Assembly (NCBI GenBank): GCA_015488325.1
Contig: WFOA01000028.1
Coordinates: forward strand, 38,309 to 102,308
Source of the DNA: Acidimicrobiia bacterium
GTDB taxonomy: Bacteria; Actinomycetota; Acidimicrobiia; Spongiisociales; ZC4RG35
Length of the DNA: 64,000 nt
Direction: 5' to 3'
The number at the start of each line of letters is the position of its first letter. Within the stretch, counting starts at the first letter, position 1. The notes under the pieces were generated by a model, which saw only the letters and a program-made list of their open reading frames with translations, had not been told where the DNA came from and made no database searches. The position numbers were made by a program, and so were the translations under genes. This document shows, one piece after another, positions 7,045-58,813 of this stretch.

Positions 7045-7957
7045 CGAGGATCCGTTCCGCCGCCGTCCACGGGTCCAACAGACGACGTTCGACGGCCGAC
7101 AGCAGCTCGTCGCCGTCGGGATGGTCGTCGATCCGGGCCACCAGGGCTTCGTGGAGCGCCCGACGGACCTCGGCTCGGAGGTTGCGGCGCCGACGGCGCT
7201 CCAGCTCGCCGTCGGCCTCGGCCGCCTCCCACCGATCCCACACCACGGAGAAGGCTTCCTCCACTCCCGTCCCGTCGACCGCCGACGTGGTGACGACGGG
7301 ACGGTGGGCGCCTCCCAGCGCCAGCATCTCCTCCAGGTCGGCGACGGCGGCGTCTACGCCGGGCCGGTCGGCCTTGTTCACGACGTAGACGTCGCCCACC
7401 TCCAGCACACCCGCCTTGTTGGCCTGCACCGAGTCACCCCAGCCGGGGGTGACGACGACGACGACCAGGTCGGTGGCCGACGCCACCTCGACCTCCGCCT
7501 GGCCGACCCCGACCGTCTCGACGAAGACCACGTCGAAACCGGCGGCGTCGACGATGCTGACCGCACGGGGGGTGGTGGCCGCCAGTCCGCCGAGATGCCC
7601 CCGGTTCGACATGGAACGGATGAACACGCCCCGGTCGCCTGCGTGATCCTGCATCCTGATGCGATCCCCGAGGATCGCCCCGCCGGTGAACGGGCTGGAC
7701 GGGTCGACGGCCACGACGGCGACGGAGCGGCCGTCGGCGCGGAGCCGGGCGATGAAGGCGTCGGTGAGGCTGCTCTTCCCGGCGCCGGGAGCTCCGGTGA
7801 TCCCCACCACCCGGGCCCGGCCGGTGTGGGGAAAGAGCCGGGCCAACAGCACGTCCCAGCCCGCCACCCGATCCTCCACCCAGGACAACGCCCGGGCGAC
7901 GGCCCGTCGTTCGCCGGCGACGACGCCGGCGGCCAGTTCCTCGGGGTCAGCGAACAT
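7031..7957 (-). CDS. meaB: methylmalonyl-CoA mutase-associated GTPase MeaB/ArgK
   Basis: 308 aa with P-loop GITGAPGAGKSS and VVNKAD. The 3' end overlaps ppdK convergently by 14 nt. Confidence 0.85.
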   Translation of the reverse strand: MFADPEELAAGVVAGERRAVARALSWVEDRVAGWDVLLARLFPHTGRARVVGITGAPGAGKSSLTDAFIARLRADGRSVAVVAVDPSSPFTGGAILGDRIRMQDHAGDRGVFIRSMSNRGHLGGLAATTPRAVSIVDAAGFDVVFVETVGVGQAEVEVASATDLVVVVVTPGWGDSVQANKAGVLEVGDVYVVNKADRPGVDAAVADLEEMLALGGAHRPVVTTSAVDGTGVEEAFSVVWDRWEAAEADGELERRRRRNLRAEVRRALHEALVARIDDHPDGDELLSAVERRLLDPWTAAERILVSRR

Positions 7958-28610: not shown

Positions 28611-29591
28611 TCAACGCAGCGCCGGGACGACCTCCCGGGCGAAGCGTTCCAGGCCCGAGGTGTCGTAGGCGGCCTCGGCGAAGTAGACGATGGCGTAGCC
28701 GAGTCCGGCGTCTGCCCACGGCCGGAGCCTGTGGACGAGTTGTTCGGGGGTGCCTGCCATCTGGCGGAACATCGCCTCGATCTGCGCCAGCCGGTCCCCC
28801 TCCACGAAGGGCCGGTAGTGGTCGACGATCCAGGCGATCCGGTCCTCCACCGCCGCCTCGGACTCCTCGCAGACGACGTTGAAGTTGGAGGAGCGAACGA
28901 TCCGGTCGAAGTCGGTGCCCACCTCCCGGCAGTGTCGGGCCAGCACCTCGGATTTACGCCGGAACTCCTCCAGGGTCGCCCCGAAGTTGGTGTAGTCGGC
29001 GTACCGGGCCGCCACCCGCAGCGTGAGCTGCTCTCCCCCACCGGCCACCCAGACGGGGATGTGGGGCTCCTGGATCGGCTTCGGCCGGCAGATCGCCCCG
29101 CCGAGGGTGTAGTGGCGGCCTTCGAAGCGGACTTCGTCTTCGGTCCACATCCTCTTCATGATCTGGACGGTCTCGTCCAGCATCCCGATCCGGACCGAAG
29201 GTCGGGGGAACTCGTACCCATAGCCGACGTATTCGTGTTCGTACCACCCCGCCCCGATCCCCATCTCCAACCTCCCACCGGAGATGACGTCGATGTCGGC
29301 GGCGACCTTCGCCAGGTAGGCGGGAGGCCGGTAGGCGGCGCAGGTGCACATCTGGCCGAGCCGCACCGTGTCGGTGGCGACGGCCAGAGCCGCCATGAGG
29401 GTCCAGGCCTCGTAGGTGACCTCCTGGGTGGGGACGGGGACGGTGTGGAAATGGTCGTAGACCCACAGAGACTCGTAGCCGGCCGACTCGATCGTCCGGG
29501 CGACGGTGGTCACCGTGTCCCACTGGTCGGCCACCGGAATCCCGACCAGGTCGAGCCGCCAGCCTTGGGGAACGAAACATCCGAAACGCAT
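28611..29591 (-). CDS. LLM-class (luciferase-like monooxygenase fold) F420-dependent oxidoreductase
   Basis: Internal ATG (MRFGCFVPQGW...) gives 326 aa. TIM-barrel LLM signatures are present. Divergent from cofC. Confidence 0.8.
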   Translation of the reverse strand: MRFGCFVPQGWRLDLVGIPVADQWDTVTTVARTIESAGYESLWVYDHFHTVPVPTQEVTYEAWTLMAALAVATDTVRLGQMCTCAAYRPPAYLAKVAADIDVISGGRLEMGIGAGWYEHEYVGYGYEFPRPSVRIGMLDETVQIMKRMWTEDEVRFEGRHYTLGGAICRPKPIQEPHIPVWVAGGGEQLTLRVAARYADYTNFGATLEEFRRKSEVLARHCREVGTDFDRIVRSSNFNVVCEESEAAVEDRIAWIVDHYRPFVEGDRLAQIEAMFRQMAGTPEQLVHRLRPWADAGLGYAIVYFAEAAYDTSGLERFAREVVPALR

Positions 29592-29697
29592 GCCTTCGAC
29601 GGTAGCGGCTCTCGTCCGGTGACCCATCGTCCGCGACGCCGCCCCGACGGAATCTTCGCTGCGCCGAGACGAGCCGCTCCGGTACCCTCCCGGGCCC

Positions 29698-30285
29698 ATG
29701 CCCGTGGCCGTGGTCGTCCCCGTCAAATCCTTCTCCCTCGCCAAGGGGAGGCTGGCCGACGTGTTCTCGGCCGAGGTCCGGGCGTCGGTCGGTCGGGCGC
29801 TGGCCGACCGGGTGGTGACCGTCGTCGCCGAAGCGGGAGCGGAGCCGCTGGTCGTCGGCGGAGACGAAGGGGTGCTCGGCTGGGCTCGGGATCGTGGGAT
29901 CCGGGCGACCGTCGCCCCTCCAGGGCTGGACGCCGCCGCCGGGATGGTCACCACCCTCACGGCGGGACGCCCCTGGGCGGTACTCCACGCCGATCTGCCG
30001 CTGCTCTCCGCCGCAGACCTCGTCCCCGCCTTCGATGTCGTCGCCGGCGGCGGCTACGTGCTGGCCCCCTCCTCCGACGGCGGGACGGCTCTCCTCGGCG
30101 GCCACGGAACCGTCGCCTTCTCCTACGGCCCGGCCAGCTTCCACCGCCATCTGGCCGCCCTCGCCGACCGGGACCCCCTCGTGCTGGTCCGCACCGGCCT
30201 CCTCCTCGACCTCGACTCGCCCGCCGACCTCACCGCCGCGCTCCGCCACCCCCGGGGTCGATGGTTGGCCGAGTTCCTCCCCTAG
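29698..30285 (+). CDS. cofC: 2-phospho-L-lactate/PEP guanylyltransferase (F420 biosynthesis)
   Basis: 195 aa, MPVAVVVPVKSFSLAKGRLADV...GGYVLAPSSDGGTALLG matches the CofC/FbiD MobA-like family. Confidence 0.75.
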   Translation: MPVAVVVPVKSFSLAKGRLADVFSAEVRASVGRALADRVVTVVAEAGAEPLVVGGDEGVLGWARDRGIRATVAPPGLDAAAGMVTTLTAGRPWAVLHADLPLLSAADLVPAFDVVAGGGYVLAPSSDGGTALLGGHGTVAFSYGPASFHRHLAALADRDPLVLVRTGLLLDLDSPADLTAALRHPRGRWLAEFLP

Positions 30286-46044: not shown

Positions 46045-46218
46045 TCGCCCTCGTCTCGAACCACGGCGCACCGACGCCGCTCACGGGCCTTCCGAGACAG
46101 GCGAGAACCTCCATGGAGGTCACCCGATCCCGGCGCCACGCTCCGCCGACACCCCTGCGAGGGTTTCTCCTTCGGCTCCGACCCGATAGAGTCACCCCTT
46201 CCACCGAAGGGAGGTGCC

Positions 46219-47235
46219 ATGACCGCCAAGACCGATGCCGTCCTCAACGCCCCCTTCGGTTCGGTATTCGCCCCGGTGATGGCGATCACCCGGTGGAGCG
46301 GCGACCGCTTCGACGACCCTTCGGTCGAACCCCTTCGACCCCTCGAACTGCATCCGGGAGCCCACGTGCTCCACTACGCAAGCTCGATCTTCGAAGGTTT
46401 GAAGGCGCATCGCGGCCCCGAAGGCCAGACACGGCTGTTCCGCCTCGACCGTCACGTCGACCGGATGCGTCGCTCGGCCGAGCTGCTGTGCCTTCCCCCG
46501 CCTCCGGCGGAGCTGCTCACGGCGATGATCGCCGAGACGGCGGCGGCCAACCGGAACGAGGTGCCCGACCCGCCGGGAAGCCTCTATCTGCGGCCCGCCA
46601 TGATCGGCACCCAAGCCGACGTCGGCGCCGCTGCCAAACCGCCCGACGAGGGTCTGCTCTACGTGGTCGCCTGCCCGGTGGGTGACTACTTCACCGGGGG
46701 GATCCGGCCGCTGCGGGTGCTGGTGGAGGACGAGGCGATGCGGTCCACCCCCGGGTTCGGCGCCGCCAAGACCGGCGCCAACTACGCGGCCGCCCTCCGC
46801 ACCGTGGTGGAGGCCCGAACCGCCCACGGAGCCGATCAGGTGCTGTTCGCTCCCGCCGGCGACGTACAGGAGACGGGTGCTTCCAACTTCCTGCTCATCG
46901 ACGACGAACGGGTGGTGACCAAGCCCGTCGACGGAACGTTCCTGCCGGGGGTGACCCGGGAGGCGGTGCTGATCCTCGCCGACCATCTCGGCTACACCGT
47001 GGAGGAACGGGACGTCTCCATCGCGGACGTCCTCGACTGGGCCCGACACGGCGAAGCCGCCCTGTCGGGCACGGCGGCAGTGCTGGCCGGCGTGGGCACC
47101 CTCGTGTATCGGGGGGTGGAGCACCGGGTCGGTTCCGGAGAGGTGGGTCCCAACACCCTGCGGCTGCGCAAAGCCCTCACCGACCTCCAGATCGGTGCGG
47201 CACCCGACACCTTCGGGTGGATCACCGAGGTGTGA
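46219..47235 (+). CDS. branched-chain amino acid aminotransferase, second paralogue (fold-type IV)
   Basis: 338 aa, ...HYASSIFEGLKAHRGPEGQTRLFRLDRHVDRM... GGGAGG SD upstream. Confidence 0.8.
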   Translation: MTAKTDAVLNAPFGSVFAPVMAITRWSGDRFDDPSVEPLRPLELHPGAHVLHYASSIFEGLKAHRGPEGQTRLFRLDRHVDRMRRSAELLCLPPPPAELLTAMIAETAAANRNEVPDPPGSLYLRPAMIGTQADVGAAAKPPDEGLLYVVACPVGDYFTGGIRPLRVLVEDEAMRSTPGFGAAKTGANYAAALRTVVEARTAHGADQVLFAPAGDVQETGASNFLLIDDERVVTKPVDGTFLPGVTREAVLILADHLGYTVEERDVSIADVLDWARHGEAALSGTAAVLAGVGTLVYRGVEHRVGSGEVGPNTLRLRKALTDLQIGAAPDTFGWITEV

Positions 47236-47282
47236 CCCGGGAAGGGTCCGAGGTCGGAAGCGTTGAGTACAATGGGGCCGTT

Positions 47283-47354
<72 letters not shown>

Positions 47355-47403
47355 CCCCGCCCCGACTCCTCGGCCGTGGCACGCCGCCGACGGCGACGGC
47401 GAC

Positions 47404-48411
47404 TCATCCCGACTGCAGGGCTCCGATCACGTGCTCTCCGTACGCCCGGAGGGTGCCCTCCTGGTCGTCGTGCATCAGGTAGATCCCGAAGTGGTCCGCG
47501 CCGAGCTCCTTCAACACGGTGAGTTTCTCGATATGCGCCTCGACGGGCCCGAGGATGCAGAACCGGTCGACGATCTCGTCGGGCACGAAGTCGGTGGTGG
47601 GGTTGTCGGGCTTGCCGTGGTGGGAGTAGTCGTAGGCCTCACGCGCGGCGATGTAGTCGGACAGCACCTTCGGCACCTTCGACTCGTCGGTCCCGTACCG
47701 GCGTACGAGATCGACCACGTGGTTGCCGACCATCCCCCCGAACCAGCGGAGCTGGTCCCGCTGGTGGCCGATGTCGTCGCCGACGTAGGCGGGGGCCACC
47801 ACACAGATGGTGATGTCGTCGGGGTCGCGGCCGGCCTCGACGGCAGCCCGGCGAACCGCCCCCATCGTCCATTCGAGGATCTGGGGGTCGGCGAGCTGGA
47901 GGATGAACCCGTCGGCGTGCCGCCCGATGGTGGCGAGGGTCTTCGGCCCGTACCCGGCCACCCAGATGGGGAGGTCCCAGCCCTCCCCCACCCACGGGAT
48001 CCGGAGGCGTTTGCCCTGGTAGTCGACCTCTTCACCGGCGACGAGGCCCTTGATCACCTTCATCGACTCGACCATCGTCGCCAACGTGCGGGGCTTTCGG
48101 CCGATGTACCGCAGCGCCGAATCGCCCCGCCCCATCCCGCAGATGGTTCGCCCACCCGACATCTCGTTCAACGTGGCGAAGAGCGACGCCAGCACCGTCC
48201 AGTCCCGGGTACCCGGGTTGGTGACCATCGGTCCGACGATCATCCGTTCGGTCACGTCGAGCATCCGTGAGTAGATGACGAAGGGCTCCTCCCACAGGAC
48301 GTGGGAGTCGAAGGTCCAGCCGTGGCTGAACCCGAGATCCTCCGCCATGCGGGTCAGCTCGATCACCCGCCGGGCGGGCGGGTCGGTCTGCAGGACGACA
48401 CCGAAGTCCAT
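47404..48411 (-). CDS. LLM-class F420-dependent oxidoreductase (luciferase-like TIM barrel)
   Basis: 335 aa, MDFGVVLQTDPPARRVIELTRMAEDLGFSHGWTFDSH... Last gene of the catabolic operon. Confidence 0.8.
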   Translation of the reverse strand: MDFGVVLQTDPPARRVIELTRMAEDLGFSHGWTFDSHVLWEEPFVIYSRMLDVTERMIVGPMVTNPGTRDWTVLASLFATLNEMSGGRTICGMGRGDSALRYIGRKPRTLATMVESMKVIKGLVAGEEVDYQGKRLRIPWVGEGWDLPIWVAGYGPKTLATIGRHADGFILQLADPQILEWTMGAVRRAAVEAGRDPDDITICVVAPAYVGDDIGHQRDQLRWFGGMVGNHVVDLVRRYGTDESKVPKVLSDYIAAREAYDYSHHGKPDNPTTDFVPDEIVDRFCILGPVEAHIEKLTVLKELGADHFGIYLMHDDQEGTLRAYGEHVIGALQSG

Positions 48412-48438
48412 GGGTTCTCCTCTTCGCTCGCGGACAGC

Positions 48439-49941
48439 TCAGCCGTGCTGGGGGAACCCCAGATCCACGCCGCGGTGGATCGGGTCGGGCCAGCGGGAGA
48501 TGATCACCTTCTGGCGGGTGTAGAAGTGCACACCTTCGGGTCCGTAGATGGCGTGGGTCCCGAAGATCGAGTCCTTCCAACCGCCGAACGAGTAGAAGGA
48601 CAAGGGCACCGGGATCGGCACGTTGATCCCGACCATCCCCACTTCGATCTCGTGCTGGAACTTACGGGCGGCGCCGCCGTCGTTGGTGAACACGGCCGTG
48701 CCGTTCCCGTAGGGGTTGTCGTTGATGAGCCGGATGGCGTCTTCGTAGTGGTCCACCCGCACGGTGGAGAGCACCGGCCCGAAGATCTCGTCACGGTAGA
48801 TCTTCATCTCCGGTGTCACCCGGTCGAACAGCGTGGGACCCAGGAAGAAGCCTTCTTCGTGGCCGGGGACGGTGAGGGTGCGGCCGTCGGCGACGAGGAC
48901 CGCCCCTTCCTGTTCTCCCGCTTCGACGTAGGAGAGGACCTTGTCGAGATGCTGCTGGGTGACGAGGGGGCCCATCTGGACACCCGGCTCGGTGCCCGGC
49001 CCGACCTTCAGTTCGGCGATCCGGTCGGTCATCTTGGGGAGCAGGCGGTCGGCGGCGTCACCGACGGTGACCACCACCGAGATCGCCATGCACCGCTCGC
49101 CCGCCGACCCGTATCCGGCGGAGACGGCGGCGTCGGCCGCCAGGTCCATGTCGGCGTCGGGGAGGACCACCATGTGGTTCTTCGCCCCTCCGAGGGCCTG
49201 GACACGTTTGCCGTTGCGCGTACCGGTCTCGTAGATGTATCGGGCGATGGGGGTGGAGCCGACGAAGGAGACCGCCGCCACGTCGGGATGGGCGAGAAGG
49301 GCGTCCACCGCCTCCTTGTCCCCATGGACGACGTTGAAGACGCCGTCGGGGAGGCCCGCCTCGGCGAGCAGTTCGGCGGCGAGCTGGGACGTGGAGGGAT
49401 CCTTCTCCGAGGGTTTGAGGACGAAGGTGTTGCCGCAGGCGATGGCGATCGGATACATCCACATGGGCACCATCGCCGGGAAGTTGAAGGGGGTGATGCC
49501 CGCCACCACCCCGAGGGGTTGACGGATCGTGTAGGTGTCGACTCCGCCGGAGACCTGCTCGGAGTAGTCACCTTTCAACAGGTGGGCGATGTTGCAGGCG
49601 AACTCGATGACTTCGAGCCCCCGCTGCACCTCGCCGGCGGCGTCGTCGAGGGTCTTGCCGTGTTCGGCGGTGAGCAGCCGAGCCAGGTCCATCTTGTGCT
49701 GCACCACCAGCTCCCGGAAGGAGAACAGGATCTGCTGGCGACGGGTGAGGGGGACCTCGCGCCATGACGCGAAGGCCTTCGCCGCCGCCGCCACGGCCTG
49801 GTCGACGACGTCCCGGTCGGCGAAGGCGACTTCGGCGGTCATCCGGCCGGTCGCCGGGTCGTAGACGGGACCTCGCCGTTCGACCGGACCGTCGTAGGGT
49901 TTGCCGTCGATCCAATGGGTGATGAGCTTCATCGGGTCCAC
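48439..49941 (-). CDS. mmsA: CoA-acylating methylmalonate/malonate-semialdehyde dehydrogenase
   Basis: 500 aa aldehyde dehydrogenase with VVAGITPFNFP, the catalytic Cys in GERCMAISV, and MmsA-type motifs. Confidence 0.88.
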   Translation of the reverse strand: MDPMKLITHWIDGKPYDGPVERRGPVYDPATGRMTAEVAFADRDVVDQAVAAAAKAFASWREVPLTRRQQILFSFRELVVQHKMDLARLLTAEHGKTLDDAAGEVQRGLEVIEFACNIAHLLKGDYSEQVSGGVDTYTIRQPLGVVAGITPFNFPAMVPMWMYPIAIACGNTFVLKPSEKDPSTSQLAAELLAEAGLPDGVFNVVHGDKEAVDALLAHPDVAAVSFVGSTPIARYIYETGTRNGKRVQALGGAKNHMVVLPDADMDLAADAAVSAGYGSAGERCMAISVVVTVGDAADRLLPKMTDRIAELKVGPGTEPGVQMGPLVTQQHLDKVLSYVEAGEQEGAVLVADGRTLTVPGHEEGFFLGPTLFDRVTPEMKIYRDEIFGPVLSTVRVDHYEDAIRLINDNPYGNGTAVFTNDGGAARKFQHEIEVGMVGINVPIPVPLSFYSFGGWKDSIFGTHAIYGPEGVHFYTRQKVIISRWPDPIHRGVDLGFPQHG

Positions 49942-50012
49942 TCCTATCAGCGTTGGAACGTTCCAACGACGCTAGTCGGGGCAGGCGCCGGACCGAACTC
50001 CGGCGCCTGCCT

Positions 50013-51431
50013 TCAGATCAGCAGCTGGCAGGTCCCACGGGGCAGATACTGGCCGTAGCCGGCGTATCCGTGGTACTCGCCGTCGGAGACCAACACCTTG
50101 CCCCGCGCCATCACCACGTCGATCCGGCCCTGGACCTCCTTGCCCTCGTAGCAGGTGTAGTCCACGTCCATGTGGTGTTCGGCGACGGTGATCGTCCGGG
50201 TGGCGTTCGGGTCGAGGACGACGATGTCGGCGTCGGAGCCGACGGCGATCGTCCCCTTCTTCGGGAAGATGCCGAACATCTTCGCCGGGGCGGTCGCCAC
50301 CACCTCCACGAACCGGTTGAGGCTCAGCCGGCCCTCCCCCACGGACCCGTGGTAGATGAGCCCGAAACGTTCCTCTACCCCGGGGAGCCCGTTGGGGATC
50401 TTCGTGAAGTCGCCCAGACCCAGCTTCTTCTGGGTGCCGAGACGGGGATGGTCGTTGAAACAGAACGGACAGTGGTCCGTCGAGATCACCTGCAGATCGT
50501 CGGTGGCGAGACCCTGCCACAGCGCCTCCTGGTGGCCCTCCTCCCAGTTGCGGACCGGAGTCGAGCAGACGTACTTGGCGCCTTCGAAGTTCGGTTCCCG
50601 CAGGTTGTCCCAGCCCAGATACAGGTACTGGGGACAGGTCTCGGCGAAGACGTTGGAGCCCCGATCCCGGGCCGCCTTGATCTCCTCGAGGGCCTCCTTC
50701 GCCGACATGTGGACGACGTAGAGGGGGCATCCGGCCAGCTCGGCGTACACGATCGCCCGATGCGTGGCCTCCCCTTCGGTCACCGGCGGCCGGGTGATCG
50801 AGTGGTAGATCGGATCGGTCTCACCCCGAGCGATCGCCTGCTCCCGCAGGACGTCGATCACGATGCCGTTCTCGGCGTGCATCATGATCGTCGAGCCGTT
50901 CTCCGCCGCCTTCTGCATGGCCATGAAGATCTGGCCGTCGTCGGAGTAGAGGACACCCGGGTACGCCATGAACAGCTTGAAGCTGGTGACGCCCTCGCCC
51001 ATGAGGACGTCCATCTCCTTCAACGTCGCCTCGTTGACGTCGGAGACGATCATGTGGAAGCCGTAGTCGATGGCGCACCGTCCCTCCGCCTTCGCCATCC
51101 ACTCCTCGTACCCGGCGACCATCGACTCCCCGATCGTCTGCACGGCGAAGTCGATGATCGTGGTGGTGCCGCCCCACGCGGCAGCCCGGGTCCCCGACTC
51201 GAAGTCGTCGGAGGCGTAGGTGCCGCCGAAGGGCAGCTCCATGTGGGTGTGGACATCCACCCCACCGGGGAAGACGTACTTCCCGGTGGCGTCGATGACC
51301 TCGTCGGCGGTCCAGTCGTGGGCGTCGGGCGCCGCCAACGCGACGACCTTCTCGCCTTCGATGAGGACGTCGGCCTCCATCGTCTCGGTGGCCGTCACCA
51401 CCGTTCCACCTTTGATGACCGTTCTCGCCAT
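50013..51431 (-). CDS. dihydropyrimidinase / D-hydantoinase
   Basis: Start at MARTVIKGG with GGAGG SD. Metal-binding HxH (DVHTHM) and carboxylated-Lys region are present. 472 aa. Confidence 0.88.
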   Translation of the reverse strand: MARTVIKGGTVVTATETMEADVLIEGEKVVALAAPDAHDWTADEVIDATGKYVFPGGVDVHTHMELPFGGTYASDDFESGTRAAAWGGTTTIIDFAVQTIGESMVAGYEEWMAKAEGRCAIDYGFHMIVSDVNEATLKEMDVLMGEGVTSFKLFMAYPGVLYSDDGQIFMAMQKAAENGSTIMMHAENGIVIDVLREQAIARGETDPIYHSITRPPVTEGEATHRAIVYAELAGCPLYVVHMSAKEALEEIKAARDRGSNVFAETCPQYLYLGWDNLREPNFEGAKYVCSTPVRNWEEGHQEALWQGLATDDLQVISTDHCPFCFNDHPRLGTQKKLGLGDFTKIPNGLPGVEERFGLIYHGSVGEGRLSLNRFVEVVATAPAKMFGIFPKKGTIAVGSDADIVVLDPNATRTITVAEHHMDVDYTCYEGKEVQGRIDVVMARGKVLVSDGEYHGYAGYGQYLPRGTCQLLI

Positions 51432-51442
51432 GGTTTCCTCCT

Positions 51443-52741
51443 TCAACCCTCGGCGGTCGCCCGCCGCACGGCCTCACCCAACTTCTCCAAGCCTTCCCGG
51501 GCCTCCTCCTCGGTCAGCGACAGCGGAGGGGCGACCCGCAGGACGTTCCCCAGCAGCCCACCTTTGCCGATCAGCAGCCCCTCCGCCTTGGCCTGTTCCA
51601 TCACCTCGGCGGTGACCTGGGGGTCCGGATCCTTCGAGCCGGGCACCACCAGCTCGATGCCGATCATGAGGCCCTTGCCCCGCACCTCGCCGATGGCGGG
51701 GACCTCCTCGGCGATCCGGTGGATGCCCTCTTTGAGCTGGTTCCCGACCTTGTAGGCGTTGGTCTGCAGGTCGTGCTCCAGCACGTACTCCAGGTTGGCC
51801 AGCGCCCCGGTGGTTGCCAGGGGGTTCCCACCGAACGTCGAGATCGAGTTGGCCGGGATCGCATCGATGATCTCGGCGCGGCCCACCACGCCGGCGATGG
51901 CGAGGCCGTTGCCGAGACCTTTGGCGAAGGTGAGCAGGTCGGGGGTGATCCCATGGGCCTGATAGCCCCAGAAGTGCTCCCCCGTGCGCCCCCAGCCGGT
52001 CTGGACCTCGTCGCTGATGAAGAGGATGCCTTCGGTGTCCAGCACCTCCTTCATCGCTCCGAAGAAGCCGTCCGGCGGGGTGGCGAACCCCCCCACCCCC
52101 TGGATCGGTTCGGCGATGAGACAGGCGACGTCTCCGGCGACGGCGATCCGCAGCAGATCCCGGAGGTCGTCCACACATGCCGCGATGAACTCGTCGTCGG
52201 GGAGATGCCCGAAGGGGCTGCGGTACTTGTAGCCCGAATGGACGTAGGTGACGTTGAAGGGGCTGAACGACGTCGCCGACCACGACCGGTTCCCGGTGAT
52301 CGCCACCGCCGAATGTGACTTCCCGTGATAGCTGTTGCGCATCGCCAGGACCTGGTTGGAACGGCGGTACTGGGTGGCCATCATCAGGGCGGCGTCGTTG
52401 GCCTCGGTCCCCGAGTTCGTGAAGAACACCTTGGCGTCGGGGATGCCCGACAGTTCGGCGATCTTCTCCGCCAGCTCGATCTGCGACTCGATCAGGTACA
52501 GGGTGGAGGTGTGGAGCATCTTCTCCGCCTGGGCTTTGATCGCTTCCACCACCTCGGGGATCTTGTACCCGGTCATCGTGGTGAGGATGCCGCCGAAGAA
52601 GTCGAGATACCGGTTGCCCTCCGCATCCCACACGTACCGCCCTTCGCCGTCCACCAGGGCGATGGGTTCGGAGTAGTAGAGGGCGAGCCAGGAGGGCAAC
52701 ACCTGGCGATGCCGGGCGAGGAGTTCGGCGTGGCGGCCCAT
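51443..52741 (-). CDS. class-III (omega) aminotransferase (beta-alanine/aminoisobutyrate-type)
   Basis: 432 aa with TNSGTEANDAA and the PLP lysine in FAKGLGNG. Start overlaps the upstream stop (ATGA). Confidence 0.85.
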   Translation of the reverse strand: MGRHAELLARHRQVLPSWLALYYSEPIALVDGEGRYVWDAEGNRYLDFFGGILTTMTGYKIPEVVEAIKAQAEKMLHTSTLYLIESQIELAEKIAELSGIPDAKVFFTNSGTEANDAALMMATQYRRSNQVLAMRNSYHGKSHSAVAITGNRSWSATSFSPFNVTYVHSGYKYRSPFGHLPDDEFIAACVDDLRDLLRIAVAGDVACLIAEPIQGVGGFATPPDGFFGAMKEVLDTEGILFISDEVQTGWGRTGEHFWGYQAHGITPDLLTFAKGLGNGLAIAGVVGRAEIIDAIPANSISTFGGNPLATTGALANLEYVLEHDLQTNAYKVGNQLKEGIHRIAEEVPAIGEVRGKGLMIGIELVVPGSKDPDPQVTAEVMEQAKAEGLLIGKGGLLGNVLRVAPPLSLTEEEAREGLEKLGEAVRRATAEG

Positions 52742-53586
52742 CAGGGTGCGACCAGATCTCCGTAGGCGTCGGGACGGCGGTCCCGGTAGAAGGCCCAGAG
52801 TTTGCGGACCTCCTCCACCTCGTCCATGTCGAGGTCACGCACCACCAGCTCTTCGTCGGTGTCGGAAGCGGCCTCACCGACGATCTGTCCCCGGGGGCTC
52901 ACGAAGTACGACGAGCCGTAGTAGTCGTTGTCGCCGAAGGGCTCTTTGCCCACCCGGTTGATGGCCCCGATGAAGTATTCGTTGGCGACGGCGGCGGCGG
53001 GTTGTTCGAGATTCCACAGGTACATGGACAGTCCCCGGCTCGTCGCCGACGGGTTGAAGACGATCTTGGCACCCTTGAGACCGAGGGCCCTCCACCCTTC
53101 CGGGAAGTGGCGGTCGTAGCAGATGTAGACGCCGATCCGCCCTGCCCGCCGGGTGTCGAACACCGGATACCCGAGGTTGCCGGGCCGGAAGTAGAACTTC
53201 TCCCAGAAGCCGTTGACGTGGGGGATGTGGGTCTTGCGGTACTTCCCCAGGTAGGTGCCGTCGGAGTCGATCACCGCCGCGGTGTTGTAGTAGAACCCGT
53301 CGTCCTCTTTCTCGAAGATGGGCACCACCAGCGCCATCTCGGTCTCCCGGGCGAGCTCCTGCATGAGCTTGGTGGTGGGTCCGTCCGGGATCGGCTCGGC
53401 GTAGTCGAAATGTTCGTTCTCCTGGACCTGGCAGAAGTAGGGCGCGTAGAACAGCTCCTGGAAGCACATCACCACCGCGCCCTGGTTCGCAGCCTCCCGG
53501 GCGTAGTCGGCGTTCTTCTCGATCATCGAGTCCTTGTCGCCCGTCCACTCGGTCTGGACGATGGCGGCCCGTACGACGTTCGCCAT
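52741..53586 (-). CDS. carbon-nitrogen hydrolase (N-carbamoyl-amino-acid amidohydrolase / beta-ureidopropionase type)
   Basis: 281 aa. Catalytic triad context: E in CFQELF, K in GKYRKTH, C in VYICYD. Confidence 0.85.
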   Translation of the reverse strand: MANVVRAAIVQTEWTGDKDSMIEKNADYAREAANQGAVVMCFQELFYAPYFCQVQENEHFDYAEPIPDGPTTKLMQELARETEMALVVPIFEKEDDGFYYNTAAVIDSDGTYLGKYRKTHIPHVNGFWEKFYFRPGNLGYPVFDTRRAGRIGVYICYDRHFPEGWRALGLKGAKIVFNPSATSRGLSMYLWNLEQPAAAVANEYFIGAINRVGKEPFGDNDYYGSSYFVSPRGQIVGEAASDTDEELVVRDLDMDEVEEVRKLWAFYRDRRPDAYGDLVAP

Positions 53587-53681
53587 GCCGCTCCTTTCTC
53601 TGTCACATCCGAAAACTAGCGAAGCCGGGGAGGGGGCGGGATCGACACCCGCCCCCTCACCGGTTCACGGTCGGGGATCCG

Positions 53682-54830
53682 TCACTCGCCGCCTTCACGC
53701 AGGGTGATGGTCCTCTTGGTGTAGCCGGCGCCCTTGGTGTCGAGACCTTCCGCCTGGAGGTCGGCGACGGCTTTCTCGGCCAGGTCGGTGCGGTAGGCCG
53801 AGTCGGGGATCGTCACCCCTTGCAGGTCGGGGATCTGGCTGGTGGCGACCTCGACGGTCTGGTCCCACAGCGCCTCGTTCATCACCCCGATGCCGTTGGT
53901 GGCGGGGAAGATCAGCGCCAGGATCTCGTTGAGCTGCCACTGCTGGTGGCTCTCCCCCAGCGCCGACCCGTTGTCCAACACGACCCCGACACAGTCGTCG
54001 AAGTTGTCGAGACAGTAGATCCAGCCCCGGAAGGTGGCCCGCAGGAACCGCACCGCGATGTCCTGGTTGGCCTCGTCGGCGATCCAGCCTTCCTCCACCC
54101 AGATGGCGTCCTGCAACATGGCGGTGGCGATCTCGGGATCGTTGAAGTCGATGACGTTGAGATCCTCCGGCTGGTACAGCTCACCCGTGTCCGGGTTCAC
54201 CGCCTCCAACACCTGGGCGTACTCGTTGTAGATCATCGCCTGGGCGGCGTCGATCTCCCGGTTCAGCAGGGCGTTCATCGTGAAGTCCTGCGCCACCAAC
54301 TCCACGTCGGGCACGTCGAACTTCTCGATGGCGGCCAACAGCTCGTACTCGTTGCCGAAGCCCCAGTTGCCCACCTTCTTGCCGGCCCAGTCCCGCGGAT
54401 GGGTGATGCCCGTGTCGGCCCAGGACACCATCAGCGTCCCCGACCGTTCGAACACCTGGGCGATGTTCACGATGTTCGCCCCGGCCTCCCGCGACACCAG
54501 CGCCTTCGGCACCCAGGCGATCCCGAACTCAGCACCGCCGGTGGCCAGCACCTGCTGGGGCACGATGTCCACACCGCCTTCGAGGATCTCCACCTCGAGG
54601 CATTCGTCGGCGTAGAAGCCCTTGTCCTTCGCCACGTAGTACCCGGCGAACTGCGCCTGGGCGAACCACTGCAGCTGCACCTTCACCGAATCCACCGAAC
54701 TGCACGCAGCCTCCCCGCCACCTTCGGCGGGGGCCGGGGCACCTTCGGTCTCGCCGCCGCCGCACGCCGCCACGATGAGGCCGACGACGGCAGCCAGCGC
54801 CACCATGCGCCACTTCGTGGAATGTCTCAT
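53682..54830 (-). CDS. ABC transporter substrate-binding lipoprotein (NMT1/THI5-like, NitT/TauT family)
   Basis: 382 aa. Signal peptide with lipobox LIVAAC. ...VQLQWFAQAQFAGYYVAKDKGFY... Confidence 0.8.
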   Translation of the reverse strand: MRHSTKWRMVALAAVVGLIVAACGGGETEGAPAPAEGGGEAACSSVDSVKVQLQWFAQAQFAGYYVAKDKGFYADECLEVEILEGGVDIVPQQVLATGGAEFGIAWVPKALVSREAGANIVNIAQVFERSGTLMVSWADTGITHPRDWAGKKVGNWGFGNEYELLAAIEKFDVPDVELVAQDFTMNALLNREIDAAQAMIYNEYAQVLEAVNPDTGELYQPEDLNVIDFNDPEIATAMLQDAIWVEEGWIADEANQDIAVRFLRATFRGWIYCLDNFDDCVGVVLDNGSALGESHQQWQLNEILALIFPATNGIGVMNEALWDQTVEVATSQIPDLQGVTIPDSAYRTDLAEKAVADLQAEGLDTKGAGYTKRTITLREGGE

Positions 54831-54893
54831 GTCTCTCCTCCCGAGAGTCGTCTGTCGCCGAGAGAGTATCGCCCACCGTGGGTCGATGTCGGC

Positions 54894-55772
54894 TCAAGCC
54901 GTGTCCGTCTTGCGCAGGGAGACGTGCCAGGGCATCGCCAGGCGTTCGGCGACGACGATCACCATGTAGAAGGTGATGCCGATGATCGAGGCGACGACGA
55001 TGGCGGCCCAGGCGTCGGGGAACTGGAACAGGTTCGCCCGGTTGAGGATGTACTGGCCGAGGACGTCCTGGGGACCTCCGAAGTACTCGGCGACGATCGC
55101 CCCGATGATCGACAGTGCCGAGGCGACCTTGAGGGAGCTGAAGAAGAAGGGCAGGGCACTCGGGATCCGGACGAGACGGAGGACCTGACGGGGCGTGGCG
55201 GCCGCAGCCCTCAGCAGCTCCAGCTCTTCGGGCTGGACTTCGAGCAACCCTCGGGCCGTGTTGATCATCACCGGGAAGAAGACGATCACCGCCACCACCG
55301 CCATCTTCGACACCGGACTGGTGACGTTGAACCAGTTGTTGGCGATGGGGGCGAGGGCGATGATCGGCGTGGTGTTGGCGGCGATGGCGAAGGGGAGGAG
55401 GCCTTCGCGCACCGCCGACCAGCGTACCGTGGCGAGGGCCATCACCACCGCCATGACCCCACCGACGACGAACCCGCCGAGCGCCTCGAAGAAGGTGCGG
55501 AACCCGGCCGCCCAGATCACGTCGAAGTTGACGACGAACCGCTGGGCGATCTCGGAGGGTTTGGGGAGGAGGAAGGTCTCGACGTCGAAGGCCCGGGTGA
55601 GGCCTTCCCAGAGGACCAGCACCACCACGAAGGCGACTCCTGCGGGACCGTAGGCACGAATCCACGTCTCGATCCGACCCGGTTCGCCGGGGATGTCCCC
55701 TTCGAAGCCGGCGAAGACGTCGGTCTCTCGTGGTTCGAACAGGTCGAGGTCCCGGTCGGCGGGCTCGGTCAT
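54894..55772 (-). CDS. ABC transporter permease (NitT/TauT family)
   Basis: Internal ATG (MTEPADRDLD...) gives 292 aa with EAA-like loop region. 4-nt overlap with the ATPase gene. Confidence 0.8.
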   Translation of the reverse strand: MTEPADRDLDLFEPRETDVFAGFEGDIPGEPGRIETWIRAYGPAGVAFVVVLVLWEGLTRAFDVETFLLPKPSEIAQRFVVNFDVIWAAGFRTFFEALGGFVVGGVMAVVMALATVRWSAVREGLLPFAIAANTTPIIALAPIANNWFNVTSPVSKMAVVAVIVFFPVMINTARGLLEVQPEELELLRAAAATPRQVLRLVRIPSALPFFFSSLKVASALSIIGAIVAEYFGGPQDVLGQYILNRANLFQFPDAWAAIVVASIIGITFYMVIVVAERLAMPWHVSLRKTDTA

Positions 55773-56545
55773 CGCTCCTCTCCTCGCCGCAACGCCTCCC
55801 TCACCTCGGTGATGAGCCGGTAGTAGTCGTCCGATTCCCGGGTGTCGACGTCCCGCGGGTGCGGCAGGGGTACGTCGACCACCTGGGAGATTCGACCCGG
55901 ACGTGGCGACATCACCACCACCCGGGTGGAGAGGAACACGGCCTCGGGGATCGAATGGGTGACGAAGACGACCGTCGTCTCCGTCTCCGTCCAGATCCGT
56001 AGGACCTCCTGCTGCATCAGCTCCCGGGTCATCTCGTCGAGGGCTCCGAAGGGTTCGTCCATCAGCAGCAGGGCGGGCCGGAAGCTGAGGGCTCGGGCGA
56101 TCGCCACCCGCTGCTGCATACCCCCCGACAGCTGCCAGGGGTGGTGATCGGCGAAGTCTTGGAGCTGTACCAGGGACAGCATCTCGGTCGCCCGTGCCTG
56201 CCGCTCCTCCTTCGGCACCCCCATGATCTCGAGGGGGAGCTCCACGTTGGCCCGGACCGTCCTCCAGTCGAGGAGGGTCGCCTGCTGGAACACGATCCCG
56301 TAGTCGCGGTCGAGCCGCGCCTGGCGAGGCTCTTTGCCGTTGACGATCAACTCCCCGGTGCTGGGCTGGAGGAGGTCGCCGATGAGGCGCAGCAGGGTGC
56401 TCTTGCCGCAACCCGACGGGCCGATGAGAGAGATGAACTCACCCTGGTCGATCCGGAGGTCGATGCCGGTGAGGGCCTCCACCCGGGCCGCACCCGCACC
56501 GAAGACCTTGCCGACCCCTCGAGCCAAGACGACTGCGTCGCTCAC
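55769..56545 (-). CDS. ABC transporter ATP-binding protein
   Basis: 258 aa with Walker A GPSGCGKST, the LSGGMQQR signature, and Walker B LLLMDEPF. Confidence 0.88.
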   Translation of the reverse strand: MSDAVVLARGVGKVFGAGAARVEALTGIDLRIDQGEFISLIGPSGCGKSTLLRLIGDLLQPSTGELIVNGKEPRQARLDRDYGIVFQQATLLDWRTVRANVELPLEIMGVPKEERQARATEMLSLVQLQDFADHHPWQLSGGMQQRVAIARALSFRPALLLMDEPFGALDEMTRELMQQEVLRIWTETETTVVFVTHSIPEAVFLSTRVVVMSPRPGRISQVVDVPLPHPRDVDTRESDDYYRLITEVREALRRGEER

Positions 56546-56553
56546 TCCTCACC

Positions 56554-57441
56554 TCATCCTTCCCGGCGGTGGTCTCCCGCCACCAGCCGATGTTCGAACC
56601 ATGTGACCGCGGCGACGAACAGGATCCCGGCCAGGGCTGACATGAGCACCGCGGCCATCAGCTTCTTCACGTTGAACTGTTGGGAGAATTCGAGGAGCGC
56701 CCGGCCCAGGCCATCGCGGAAACCGGCCGGGAGCTCTCCGACGATGGCACCGATCACCGACGCCGTCGCCGACACCTTGAGGGCGGTGAAGATGTAGGGG
56801 AGGGCGGCGGGCACCTGGAGTTTCCAGAGCACCTGGGAGGGCGTGGCCGCGTAGGAGCGCATCATCTCGACCGCCGTCGGAGCCGGGGACCGCAGACCCC
56901 GAACGGTGTTGATGGTGACGGGGAAGAAGGTGAGGTAGGCGGCGATGATCGCCACCGACAGCCACTGGGGAACGTCGAGTTGGCCGCCCCAGACCACCAC
57001 CATGGGGGCGATGGCGATGATGGGGACGGTCTGGGAGGCGACGACGTAGGGCATGAAGGCCCGTTCGGCCAGCGTCGAACGGACGAAGGCGACACCGAGC
57101 CCGAACCCGATCACCCCGCCGACCACGAACCCGACCAACGCCTCCCGCAGGGTGAACATCGCCGCCTTCGCCAACAGGAGCACCGTCAGTTCGCCGTTGC
57201 GACGCACCGGCTGGAAGAGCTGGAGCACCACGTCCCAGGTATGGGGCATGAAGCGGTCGTTGGGAGGGGGGCGGAGGCGCAGTTCGGTGCCGGGGACCAC
57301 CCCGCCCAACGCCTCACCCACGACCTTGTAGAGCTCCCAGGCGACGACGACGACCGCCAACACCCCGAGGAAACCGACGACTCGTCGGACCCTGGGTGAC
57401 CGGCGCGAGGCCGTCGAGACGACTTCGGGTGCGTCGGTCAT
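56554..57441 (-). CDS. ABC transporter permease (NitT/TauT family)
   Basis: Internal ATG (MTDAPEVV...) gives 295 aa. Polytopic. Confidence 0.8.
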   Translation of the reverse strand: MTDAPEVVSTASRRSPRVRRVVGFLGVLAVVVVAWELYKVVGEALGGVVPGTELRLRPPPNDRFMPHTWDVVLQLFQPVRRNGELTVLLLAKAAMFTLREALVGFVVGGVIGFGLGVAFVRSTLAERAFMPYVVASQTVPIIAIAPMVVVWGGQLDVPQWLSVAIIAAYLTFFPVTINTVRGLRSPAPTAVEMMRSYAATPSQVLWKLQVPAALPYIFTALKVSATASVIGAIVGELPAGFRDGLGRALLEFSQQFNVKKLMAAVLMSALAGILFVAAVTWFEHRLVAGDHRREG

Positions 57442-57553
57442 GGGCCGGGACTCTAGCGAGCGGGCGACGAGCGATCCGAGGGGAAGGCGGGCCTGTGTCG
57501 ACGGGGCGCCCAGGGAGGTGTCGCCCCCCGCCACCCACCCCAGCGGCTCGGCC

Positions 57554-58015
57554 TCATCCGACGCCCAGCTCCTCTCGGACGATGCGGCTGACGGTCGCAC
57601 CGTCGAGGTCGTCGCGGCGTTTCATGAGGTGGCCGACCACCCGACCGACGGCCTTGGGGTCCCCCGCCACGCCGAGTTCCGCGATGGCGTCCGCAACCAA
57701 CGCCCGTGTCTCCGCCTCGCCGAGGGTCTGGGGCATCCAGCGTGACAGGTACTCGATCTCCCAGGCGAGTTTCTCGGCCATCTCCCGCCCCCGCTCGCCC
57801 GCCGCTTCGTACTCCTCTTTCGCTTTCGCCATCTTCTTGACGTAGGAGGAGATCACCTTGCGGTAGAGGTCGTCGTCCACTTCGCCGGTGAAGCCGGGGG
57901 CGGTCTTCGCCTTGGTCACCTCCGTCTCGATCTGGCGGATGACGTCGCGTCGCCGTGCGTCTCTGGCCCGCATGGCGTCTCGGAGCTCGGCGGCGAGTTC
58001 GTCGTGGATGCTCAT
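57554..58015 (-). CDS. GatB/YqeY-domain protein
   Basis: Internal ATG (MSIHDELAAELRDAMRARDARRRDVIRQIETEV...) gives 153 aa. ATGA overlap with the upstream gene. Confidence 0.75.
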   Translation of the reverse strand: MSIHDELAAELRDAMRARDARRRDVIRQIETEVTKAKTAPGFTGEVDDDLYRKVISSYVKKMAKAKEEYEAAGERGREMAEKLAWEIEYLSRWMPQTLGEAETRALVADAIAELGVAGDPKAVGRVVGHLMKRRDDLDGATVSRIVREELGVG

Positions 58016-58722
58016 CGGTACGCTCCCAGGGTCTCGGCCATCTGGCCGGGGTCGTCGGTGATGATGGCGTCGATGCCCGCCTCCGCCAAGCGGAGGGCGA
58101 CCTCGGGGTCGTTCACGGTCCACGAGACGACGCCGATCCCTTCCCGGTGGGCCTCGTCGATGAACCCCGGGGCGGCGACGAGCAGCGACCAGTGGGGAAC
58201 CACCGTCCGGTGCCCACCGTCGACGGCGTGCCCGAGGAGGGATTCGAGGTCCGTGGACGGTGCAGCGAGGAGCCCGGTCGAGACGGTGGGGAACCCATGA
58301 CGGACGGCGTCGACGGTCGGCCAGAAGAAGCTGGTGAGCAGGTCGCCGGGACGGGCGAGGGCTGCGGTGTCGAGGCCGAGACGGTGGTCGGGTTCGAATC
58401 CCGGTTCGGTGGGGTCGTTCTTGACCTCCAGGTTGAGGGGGAGCCCGTCCAGGGCGGCGACGACGTCCTCCAAGGTGACGGGGCGGTGACCGTCACCGAG
58501 GTCGAGGCGCTCCAGCTCCGGCCACGGGGTCTCGGACACGACCTTGCCGCCCAGTTCCGGGTCGTGGGAGAGGACGAGGCGCCCGTCGGCCGAGCGCCGC
58601 ACGTCGATCTCGGCCATGTCGGCGACGTCGACACAGGCCTCGAGGCCGGCGAGGGTGTTGTCGGGGTACCGGGTTCGCCAGCCCCGATGACCCACGATCT
58701 GGAGTCGGTCTCTAGTTTTCAT
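58012..58722 (-). CDS. glycerophosphodiester phosphodiesterase
   Basis: Start at MKTRDRLQIVGHRGW (GDPD HR(G)xxxxPENT-type motif: VGHRGWRTRYPDNTL). 236 aa. Confidence 0.8.
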   Translation of the reverse strand: MKTRDRLQIVGHRGWRTRYPDNTLAGLEACVDVADMAEIDVRRSADGRLVLSHDPELGGKVVSETPWPELERLDLGDGHRPVTLEDVVAALDGLPLNLEVKNDPTEPGFEPDHRLGLDTAALARPGDLLTSFFWPTVDAVRHGFPTVSTGLLAAPSTDLESLLGHAVDGGHRTVVPHWSLLVAAPGFIDEAHREGIGVVSWTVNDPEVALRLAEAGIDAIITDDPGQMAETLGAYR

Positions 58723-58813
58723 CACGAAAAAACTATTGCGCTTCTGACATATAGTCTGTACGTTTCCTCCGCGGTAACCCAACCTTCCCCGGGTCTCCCG
58801 ATGCGGGGAAGCT

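Follow-up and report, generated by a model that had tools for sequence, protein, structure and literature searches.

A luciferase-like F420-type oxidoreductase as a probable uracil/thymine reductase in a pyrimidine-degradation operon that lacks dihydropyrimidine dehydrogenase

Introduction

How does a reductive pyrimidine-degradation operon begin its pathway when the gene for the first enzyme is missing? The question is raised by 64,000 nucleotides of Acidimicrobiia bacterium DNA (contig WFOA01000028.1), called the window here over its whole length. A minus-strand run of nine consecutive genes (47404-57534, by the starts of the gene callers) encodes a transporter and the enzymes of the later steps of uracil and thymine degradation, and its last gene encodes an oxidoreductase of the luciferase-like monooxygenase (LLM) class. 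We believe that this LLM protein would be an F420H2-dependent uracil/thymine reductase that takes the place of PydA in the operon, and we give this reading a probability of about 0.7.

The reductive Pyd pathway, with its extension to acetyl-CoA or propionyl-CoA, is the known part of this proposal, and the proposed first enzyme is the new part. A route from uracil to acetyl-CoA exists in Bacillus megaterium. In 2019, Yin et al. reportedly extended the bacterial Pyd pathway to a β-alanine aminotransferase and a malonic semialdehyde reductase or dehydrogenase.

The gene cluster and its pathway enzymes

The gene content matches steps 2-5 of reductive uracil/thymine degradation, which the original prediction had already recognized in this locus. 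The dihydropyrimidinase/D-hydantoinase (PydB; 50013-51431, minus strand, as for all nine genes) scored 586.5 bits against the TIGR02033 equivalog model, whose cutoff is 393.25, and its closest solved structures are Bacillus D-hydantoinase/dihydropyrimidinase enzymes (E 1e-157). The PydC-equivalent step would be carried out by a CN hydrolase of the β-ureidopropionase/N-carbamoyl amidase type (52741-53586; PF00795, 226 bits). Its catalytic Glu, Lys and Cys motifs are visible in the sequence, and it scores under every NCBIfam equivalog cutoff. N-carbamoylputrescine amidase and animal β-ureidopropionases are its closest solved structures (E 1e-52 to 1e-55), and D-carbamoylases are much farther away (E 1e-28). 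This indicates that pyrimidine catabolism is favored over a D-hydantoinase process. The products β-alanine and β-aminoisobutyrate can be handled within the cluster, which encodes both a class-III aminotransferase (51443-52741; PF00202, 329 bits) and the CoA-acylating methylmalonate/malonate-semialdehyde dehydrogenase MmsA (48439-49932; TIGR01722, 751 bits against a cutoff of 448). The aminotransferase reaches no NCBIfam equivalog cutoff, and we infer that it is a β-alanine/β-aminoisobutyrate aminotransferase. A hydantoinase process for D-amino acids was considered and rejected; the affinity of the CN hydrolase and the fit of the aminotransferase and MmsA to β-amino acids speak against it.

The transport half of the cluster encodes an ATP-binding cassette (ABC) transporter. 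It consists of permease 1 (BPD_transp_1, 326 aa; 56554-57534; PF00528), an ATPase of the nitrate/sulfonate/taurine type (55769-56545; PF00005), permease 2 (54894-55772; PF00528) and an NMT1/THI5-like substrate-binding lipoprotein (53682-54830; PF09084, 124 bits). The best NCBIfam matches of the ATPase are NtrCD, TauB and SaoA-like models, each under its cutoff. The lipoprotein is the probable pyrimidine-binding component, and the setting of the transporter among these enzymes suggests a pyrimidine as its substrate.

The genes are closely packed. Permease 1 and the ATPase gene are separated by 8 nt, the ATPase and permease 2 genes overlap by 4 nt, and a 63-nt gap precedes the NMT1-type gene, which is followed by a 95-nt gap before the CN hydrolase gene. 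The CN hydrolase and aminotransferase genes overlap by 1 nt, and gaps of 11, 80 and 27 nt follow down to the LLM gene. An identical LLM was found on 13 public contigs with matching gene calls, and the window sequence matches contigs of uncultured Acidimicrobiia metagenome-assembled genomes (MAGs), such as GCA_015492815.1 WGEJ01000011.1. The coordinates, the family assignments and these gene calls bear out the nine-gene minus-strand unit first proposed for this DNA. Its gene set stood and one of its limits did not: permease 1 had been started at 57441, which is an alternative ATG, and the gene callers place the start at 57534. They also place the starts of dihydropyrimidinase and MmsA at an ATG at 51431 and at 49932, respectively, in correction of the earlier positions.

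Compared with the bacterial Pyd pathway (PydA/PreAT, PydB, PydC), the overall logic is the same. Steps 2-5 are shared by gene content (dihydropyrimidinase, a probable N-carbamoyl-β-alanine amidohydrolase, a predicted β-alanine aminotransferase and CoA-acylating semialdehyde dehydrogenase), and in both systems a pyrimidine transporter accompanies the catabolic genes. The difference lies in the first step. The cluster has no PydA/PreAT and instead has an LLM protein of the TIGR03842 family, with another fold, another predicted cofactor and no Fe-S clusters, and the electron donor would be F420H2 here instead of NAD(P)H.

The same enzymes could also belong to a module that degrades another unsaturated cyclic amide or N-heterocycle. 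Substituted pyrimidines, cyclic imides like maleimide and hydantoin-related compounds are examples. In that case, the LLM would reduce the ring and the dihydropyrimidinase and carbamoylase would act afterwards. D-hydantoinase/dihydropyrimidinase enzymes are promiscuous towards five- and six-membered cyclic amides, which leaves room for such a substrate, as do the sub-cutoff scores of the CN hydrolase and a transporter substrate that is read from context. However, the dihydropyrimidinase lies above its equivalog cutoff, the CN hydrolase is far nearer to β-ureidopropionases than to D-carbamoylases, the aminotransferase and MmsA fit β-alanine or β-aminoisobutyrate as products, and nucleobase permeases of the NCS1 and RutG-like kinds recur in related modules (see below). 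We consider a different ring unlikely.

Absence of dihydropyrimidine dehydrogenase

Homologues of E. coli PreT and PreA were searched with tblastn. The 64-kb window and 80 related actinobacterial loci contained none (E<=1e-3), and neither did 13 proteobacterial loci (E<=1e-5). No DHO_dh or PreT-type domain was present among the coding-like open reading frames (ORFs) of the window in Pfam, NCBIfam or both, and the other coding-like ORFs were assigned to housekeeping genes by the same scans. PF01180 was also missing from the Pfam-annotated neighbourhoods examined. Thus, the earlier statement that the window carries no dihydropyrimidine dehydrogenase (DPD) held in both the tblastn searches and the domain scans.

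The TIGR03842 oxidoreductase

The LLM gene (47404-48411, minus strand; PF00296) encodes a full-length member of TIGR03842 (F420_CPS_4043). Residues 2-332 match model positions 1-329, and the whole-protein hidden Markov model score of 539.1 bits exceeds the curated cutoff of 295.45. In NCBIfam release 20 (June 2026), TIGR03842 is a hypothetical equivalog with no named function, and the biological process given in RefSeq for its members is the root GO term only. The family is large: its motif occurs in at least about 600 species-level genomes of a GTDB-based collection, and thousands of metagenomic clusters match it. The homology and gene contexts described here suggest that the family uses F420.

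The next-best NCBIfam matches of the LLM are two models of methylene-tetrahydromethanopterin reductase (Mer), NF002619 (134.9 bits, cutoff 276) and TIGR03555 (110.8 bits, cutoff 348.7), and other F420-dependent LLM families follow. By sequence, the closest solved protein is Mer of Methanocaldococcus jannaschii (jMer; E 3e-31, full length). An AlphaFold2 model of the LLM was obtained with a mean predicted local distance difference test (pLDDT) of 82 and a predicted template-modelling score of 0.84. The model is a luciferase-like (β/α)8 barrel that most resembles the F420-dependent members of the fold. The first 21 Foldseek hits are all F420-dependent LLM proteins (Mer, FGD1, FGD2 and Adf), with Mer as the best match (TM 0.81), and monooxygenases dependent on flavin mononucleotide (FMN) rank lower.

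Mer is itself an F420H2-dependent reductase, and a reading of the LLM as a genuine Mer of one-carbon (C1) metabolism would draw on its place as the closest characterised homologue (PDB 8QPL and 1Z69; about 27% identity over the full length). The functional residues of jMer and the catalytic role of Glu6 have been described (PMC11094777), and a Glu6Gln variant retains 0.4% of kcat (PMC11094777). Val63, Asp97 and Gln172 of the LLM align to the non-prolyl cis-peptide Val62, Asp96 and the position-178 carboxamide of jMer, the last of which lies where strand β-6 ends; all three features are thus kept. The catalytic Glu6 aligns to Val6. All four LLM residues (Val6, Val63, Asp97 and Gln172) are invariant in 79 orthologues with 64-100% identity. 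The F420-site features are therefore kept and Glu6 is lost, which argues that the LLM is not a Mer. The LLM also has a family-specific conserved insertion at about residues 250-270, it scores far under both Mer cutoffs, no C1-pathway genes lie nearby, and the organisms and gene contexts of TIGR03842 have no link to C1 or tetrahydromethanopterin metabolism. An identity as Mer is, in our view, next to impossible. Candidate substrate-binding or acid residues of the LLM are Asp35/Ser36, Asp97/Ser98 and Gln172, which are family-invariant, and Tyr260/Tyr262/His265, which are family-specific and may act from a loop that is modelled at low confidence.

The original prediction had also allowed for a RutA-like enzyme that attacks the ring. 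RutA is an FMN- and O2-dependent enzyme that cleaves the pyrimidine ring and works with the partners RutB-F. Under this alternative, the LLM would be an FMN-dependent monooxygenase, and two things favor it: the common luciferase-like fold and the action of RutA on uracil according to the E. coli annotation. However, the similarity is at superfamily level only, with 24% identity to E. coli RutA over 188 residues (BLASTP, E 0.002). RutA (TIGR03612) is not among the 25 best NCBIfam matches of the LLM, a list headed by F420 families, and the top structural matches are F420 enzymes. No homologues of RutB, RutC, RutD or RutF and no flavin reductase were found in the window. In Proteobacteria, genes for F420 biosynthesis and Fno share an operon with the gene of this family (see below). 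In addition, the product of RutA would bypass dihydropyrimidinase, and a RutA route would yield no substrates for this enzyme. An oxidative attack on the ring is thus highly improbable.

Gene neighbourhoods in Actinomycetota

A scan for the family motif with one genome per GTDB species gave at least 600 stretches, at least 599 of which were confirmed relatives. The best 80 loci were kept. They are the loci closest to the query LLM (64-81% identity) and not a random sample of the family, and they span Acidimicrobiia, Streptomyces, Pseudonocardia, Prauserella, Streptosporangiaceae, Actinopolymorpha and others. Sixty-eight loci, each with 3 kb or more of sequence ahead of the LLM gene, were regarded as informative.

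A dihydropyrimidinase gene lies within 10 kb of the LLM gene in 65 of these 68 loci; in 64, it precedes the LLM gene on the same strand. The two genes are directly adjacent in 27 loci and are separated by MmsA alone in 24. This linkage strengthens the earlier idea that the LLM may be an F420H2-dependent pyrimidine reductase. CN hydrolase was found in 56 of the 68 loci, the aminotransferase and MmsA in 43 each, and an NMT1-type transporter in about 25; nine loci contain only CN hydrolase, dihydropyrimidinase and the LLM. Gene order differs between lineages: the transporter genes may lie on either side of the catabolic genes, and the aminotransferase or MmsA is missing from some loci. The dihydropyrimidinase-LLM pair, mostly with CN hydrolase, persists despite this shuffling, which indicates functional coupling and not inherited synteny alone. 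Clustering of all ORFs in the 80 loci revealed no further conserved redox, regulatory or other family.

Three kinds of nucleobase transporter accompany the actinobacterial modules: NMT1-type ABC, NCS1 and RutG-like. The Streptomyces unit consists of CN hydrolase, aminotransferase, dihydropyrimidinase, LLM and an NCS1 nucleobase permease, and has no MmsA. An NCS1 permease gene lies upstream in Prauserella and Actinocrinis, and one locus (L032) has a RutG-like permease in its module.

These neighbourhoods bear on the possibility that a canonical DPD is encoded elsewhere and that the LLM has an accessory role, for example by using F420H2 to reduce malonic or methylmalonic semialdehyde to the 3-hydroxy acid, as an analogue of PydE/RutE. 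F420-dependent LLM proteins include alcohol dehydrogenases such as Adf, and the Streptomyces clusters have the aminotransferase without MmsA, so a semialdehyde-consuming enzyme would help there. The search for PydA was also confined to the window and the neighbourhoods. Against such a role, the LLM is tied more closely to dihydropyrimidinase (65/68) than to the aminotransferase (43/68), and in the 43 loci where the LLM and MmsA occur together a second consumer of the semialdehyde would be redundant. The nine loci reduced to CN hydrolase, dihydropyrimidinase and LLM point the same way, as do the Pseudovibrio and Marinobacterium modules described below, which have no aminotransferase within 10 kb. 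PydA was found in none of the 93 neighbourhoods. We therefore hold an accessory role to be quite improbable.

Two loci contain further features. In L072, the LLM gene is flanked by genes for MmsA and an NMT1-type transporter. In L064 (Actinopolymorpha sp. B11F2), a second luciferase-like gene (6334-7419) immediately precedes those for CN hydrolase, dihydropyrimidinase and the TIGR03842 LLM, and its product is the best RutA-like match in the data set (29% identity, E 5e-14).

Gene neighbourhoods in Proteobacteria

A search of annotated plasmid proteins found TIGR03842 members with 43-44% identity in Leisingera and Paracoccus. The proteobacterial sample is small, with 13 loci from nine lineages. 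Its TIGR03842 proteins are 43-45% identical to the LLM of the window and score 506 bits. In all nine lineages, a cofG-cofH-cofD-cofC-cofE-fno operon ends with the TIGR03842 gene. The order annotated for Leisingera caerulea and L. aquaemixtae is cofG-cofH-cofD-cofC-cofE-npdG-TIGR03842, in which npdG encodes an NADPH-dependent F420 reductase. This co-operonic arrangement with the F420 pathway and Fno speaks for F420 dependence in the family and for a reductive direction of the reaction.

The divergent neighbouring operon in Leisingera encodes PntAB, an AptA-type ω-aminotransferase, an M20 "hydantoinase/carbamoylase family amidase", a dihydropyrimidinase (615 bits to TIGR02033) and an NCS1 permease. 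The position of pntAB, which encodes NAD(P) transhydrogenase, at the start of this pyd operon suggests a dedicated supply of NADPH. Dihydropyrimidinase adjoins the cof-fno-LLM operon in six of the nine lineages, and this linkage, with the cof-fno arrangement, lends further strength to the F420H2 reductase idea as a proposal from gene context. Besides Leisingera, the lineages with dihydropyrimidinase and a nucleobase transporter within 10 kb are Pseudovibrio, Cohaesibacter, the gammaproteobacterium Marinobacterium, a Tara-abundant MAG and Paracoccus jiaweipingae. The M20 amidase lies within 10 kb in Pseudovibrio, Cohaesibacter, Marinobacterium and Paracoccus jiaweipingae, and none was seen within that distance in the Tara lineage. 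The ABC transporters of Cohaesibacter and the Tara MAG are 35-52% identical to the transporter of the window; across the six proteobacterial modules with dihydropyrimidinase, the transporter is of the NCS1 or NMT1 type. No aminotransferase was found within 10 kb in Pseudovibrio and Marinobacterium, where dihydropyrimidinase, M20 amidase, a transporter, the cof-fno operon and the LLM are all present.

The M20 carbamoylase-family amidase is not homologous to CN hydrolase and has an unrelated fold. A second phylum thus places the same LLM family beside dihydropyrimidinase with an unrelated carbamoylase, and this supports the proposed reductase role as independent evidence.

Leisingera, Pseudovibrio, Marinobacterium and Paracoccus jiaweipingae have a TetR-family regulator gene beside the cof-fno-LLM operon; it is upstream of cofG in Marinobacterium and just after the LLM gene in the other three. 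In Leisingera (plasmids L089/L091/L093) and in Paracoccus alcaliphilus, a small DUF1330 gene is found at the edge of the module. Genes for a tripartite ATP-independent periplasmic (TRAP) transporter follow the LLM gene in Pukyongiella and lie upstream of the cof operon in Hoeflea.

Proposed pathway and its weak points

In the proposed pathway, the NMT1-type ABC transporter would bring in the pyrimidine. The LLM would then reduce uracil or thymine: a hydride would pass from C5 of F420H2 to C6 of the pyrimidine, and protonation at the pyrimidine C5 would give the 5,6-dihydropyrimidine. In dihydropyrimidine dehydrogenase, the hydride passes from FMNH2 to C6, and the LLM step would be analogous. 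The ring would be opened by dihydropyrimidinase, and CN hydrolase would release β-alanine or β-aminoisobutyrate with NH3 and CO2. The class-III aminotransferase would convert these products to malonate or methylmalonate semialdehyde, from which MmsA would form acetyl-CoA or propionyl-CoA. F420H2 would be regenerated elsewhere and, in the proteobacterial versions, by the co-transcribed NADPH:F420 oxidoreductase.

Several points weigh against this proposal. The substrate and chemistry assigned to the LLM, and the use of F420 by the family, are argued from genomic context and homology. To our knowledge, the characterised F420-dependent LLM proteins act on iminium, carbonyl/alcohol and sugar-phosphate substrates, and the documented F420H2-dependent ene-reductions belong to the split-barrel FDOR class and not to LLM proteins. 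The predicted active-site loops (residues 36-40, 66-68, 96-106 and 262-269) have pLDDT values below 50. No dihydropyrimidinase was found within about 10 kb in three of the 68 actinobacterial loci (L036, L072 and L080) or in three of the nine proteobacterial lineages (Paracoccus alcaliphilus, Pukyongiella and Hoeflea). Finally, the absence of PydA applies to the window and the 93 neighbourhoods, and a DPD may be encoded elsewhere in these genomes.

Precedents and significance

No account of an F420-dependent step in the breakdown of pyrimidines came from a search of open-access full-text papers and bioRxiv, with subscription literature outside its scope, and the F420-linked variant is probably undescribed. 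Two precedents are related. In uric-acid clusters of Chloroflexota, a putative F420 LLM stands in place of a PydA homologue, as remarked in 2025 (PMC12507026). The logic is the same, since an F420-type LLM replaces a PydA-homologous heterocycle reductase beside cyclic amidohydrolases. The Chloroflexota cluster differs in that it serves purine (xanthine/uric acid) catabolism, and its LLM is likewise uncharacterised. In napsamycin and mureidomycin biosynthesis, reduction of the uracil C5-C6 bond by NpsU/SSGG-03002 was shown genetically, with F420 or FMN as the predicted cofactor (PMC10714638). The target double bond is the same as that proposed here. NpsU/SSGG-03002 differs in its substrate, a uridyl-peptide antibiotic, and in its detectable relatives, which are split-barrel proteins of the PPOX class, and its activity in vitro was not obtained. 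It was rejected as a homologue of the LLM; with such relatives, it is a functional analogue only.

Taken over the whole family, we put it at somewhat better than even odds that TIGR03842 proteins are F420H2-dependent uracil/thymine reductases and non-homologous replacements of DPD, that they provide the normal entry of pyrimidines in hundreds of Actinomycetota species, and that they are the reason why many marine Alpha- and Gammaproteobacteria carry cofGHDCE-fno. If this is true, nucleobase catabolism would have its first F420-dependent enzyme, a function would be assigned to a large orphan enzyme family, and a textbook pathway would gain a new cofactor and a new fold. The users in Actinomycetota would include Streptomyces, Pseudonocardia and abundant soil, marine and sponge Acidimicrobiia. 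F420 would then serve central nitrogen and carbon scavenging in aerobic bacteria, beyond methanogenesis, antibiotic biosynthesis and xenobiotic reduction.

A paper of 2022 states that what F420 does for the physiology of Gram-negative bacteria "remains unknown" (PMC8764529). The proposal would give F420 such a role and would explain the horizontally acquired cofGHDCE-fno operon in many marine Alpha- and Gammaproteobacteria, and the question would become directly testable. For annotation, genomes in which pyrimidine degradation seems to have no first enzyme may encode the whole pathway. An F420H2-dependent uracil reductase could also be a biocatalyst and may have relevance to bacterial fluoropyrimidine metabolism.

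Other features of the locus

A convergent tRNA-Arg(CCG) gene (47282-47357, plus strand), 46 nt past the stop codon of the LLM gene, marks the operon's 3' end, as does ilvE. A long minus-strand ORF (46192-47382) that overlaps the tRNA gene was rejected as spurious. The 5' boundary is tentative, because a YqeY-domain gene (57554-58015) and a glycerophosphodiester phosphodiesterase gene (GDPD; 58012-58782) lie upstream on the same minus strand, with the YqeY gene only 19 nt from permease 1. Other lineages do not keep these two genes beside the cluster. Scans for sigma-70 promoters and intrinsic terminators gave nothing that exceeded the shuffled background, and a search for riboswitches and other known RNAs in 46.0-59.5 kb found the tRNA alone.

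Within the 95-nt gap between the binding-protein and CN hydrolase genes, there is a perfect 11-bp G+C-rich hairpin with a 7-nt loop (53630-53658, minus strand). Downstream of it, directly ahead of the CN hydrolase start codon, is a ribosome-binding site, GAAAGGAG. As a partial terminator or a processing site, the hairpin may divide the transport genes from the catabolic genes. The G+C content of the whole window is approximately 70%. Between 48000 and 56000, the cluster has a G+C content of 0.65-0.665 compared with 0.69-0.70 in the flanks, and third-position G+C stays at 0.89-0.93. Amino-acid composition and past horizontal transfer are both possible causes.

Other genes in the window are related to F420. 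The plus-strand gene at 29698-30285 encodes CofC/FbiD, 2-phospho-L-lactate guanylyltransferase (PF01983; TIGR03552 equivalog, 110.4 bits against a cutoff of 105), and the genome thus encodes part of the F420 pathway, which is indirect evidence that the LLM may use this cofactor. Divergent from it is a second LLM gene (28611-29960, minus strand) of the F420-dependent family TIGR03560. The start of this gene is probably near 29590, because its Pfam domain begins at residue 124. At 609-1079 on the minus strand, a PPOX/Pyridox_ox_2 protein has weak, sub-threshold matches to F420-dependent PPOX families and may be another F420 enzyme.

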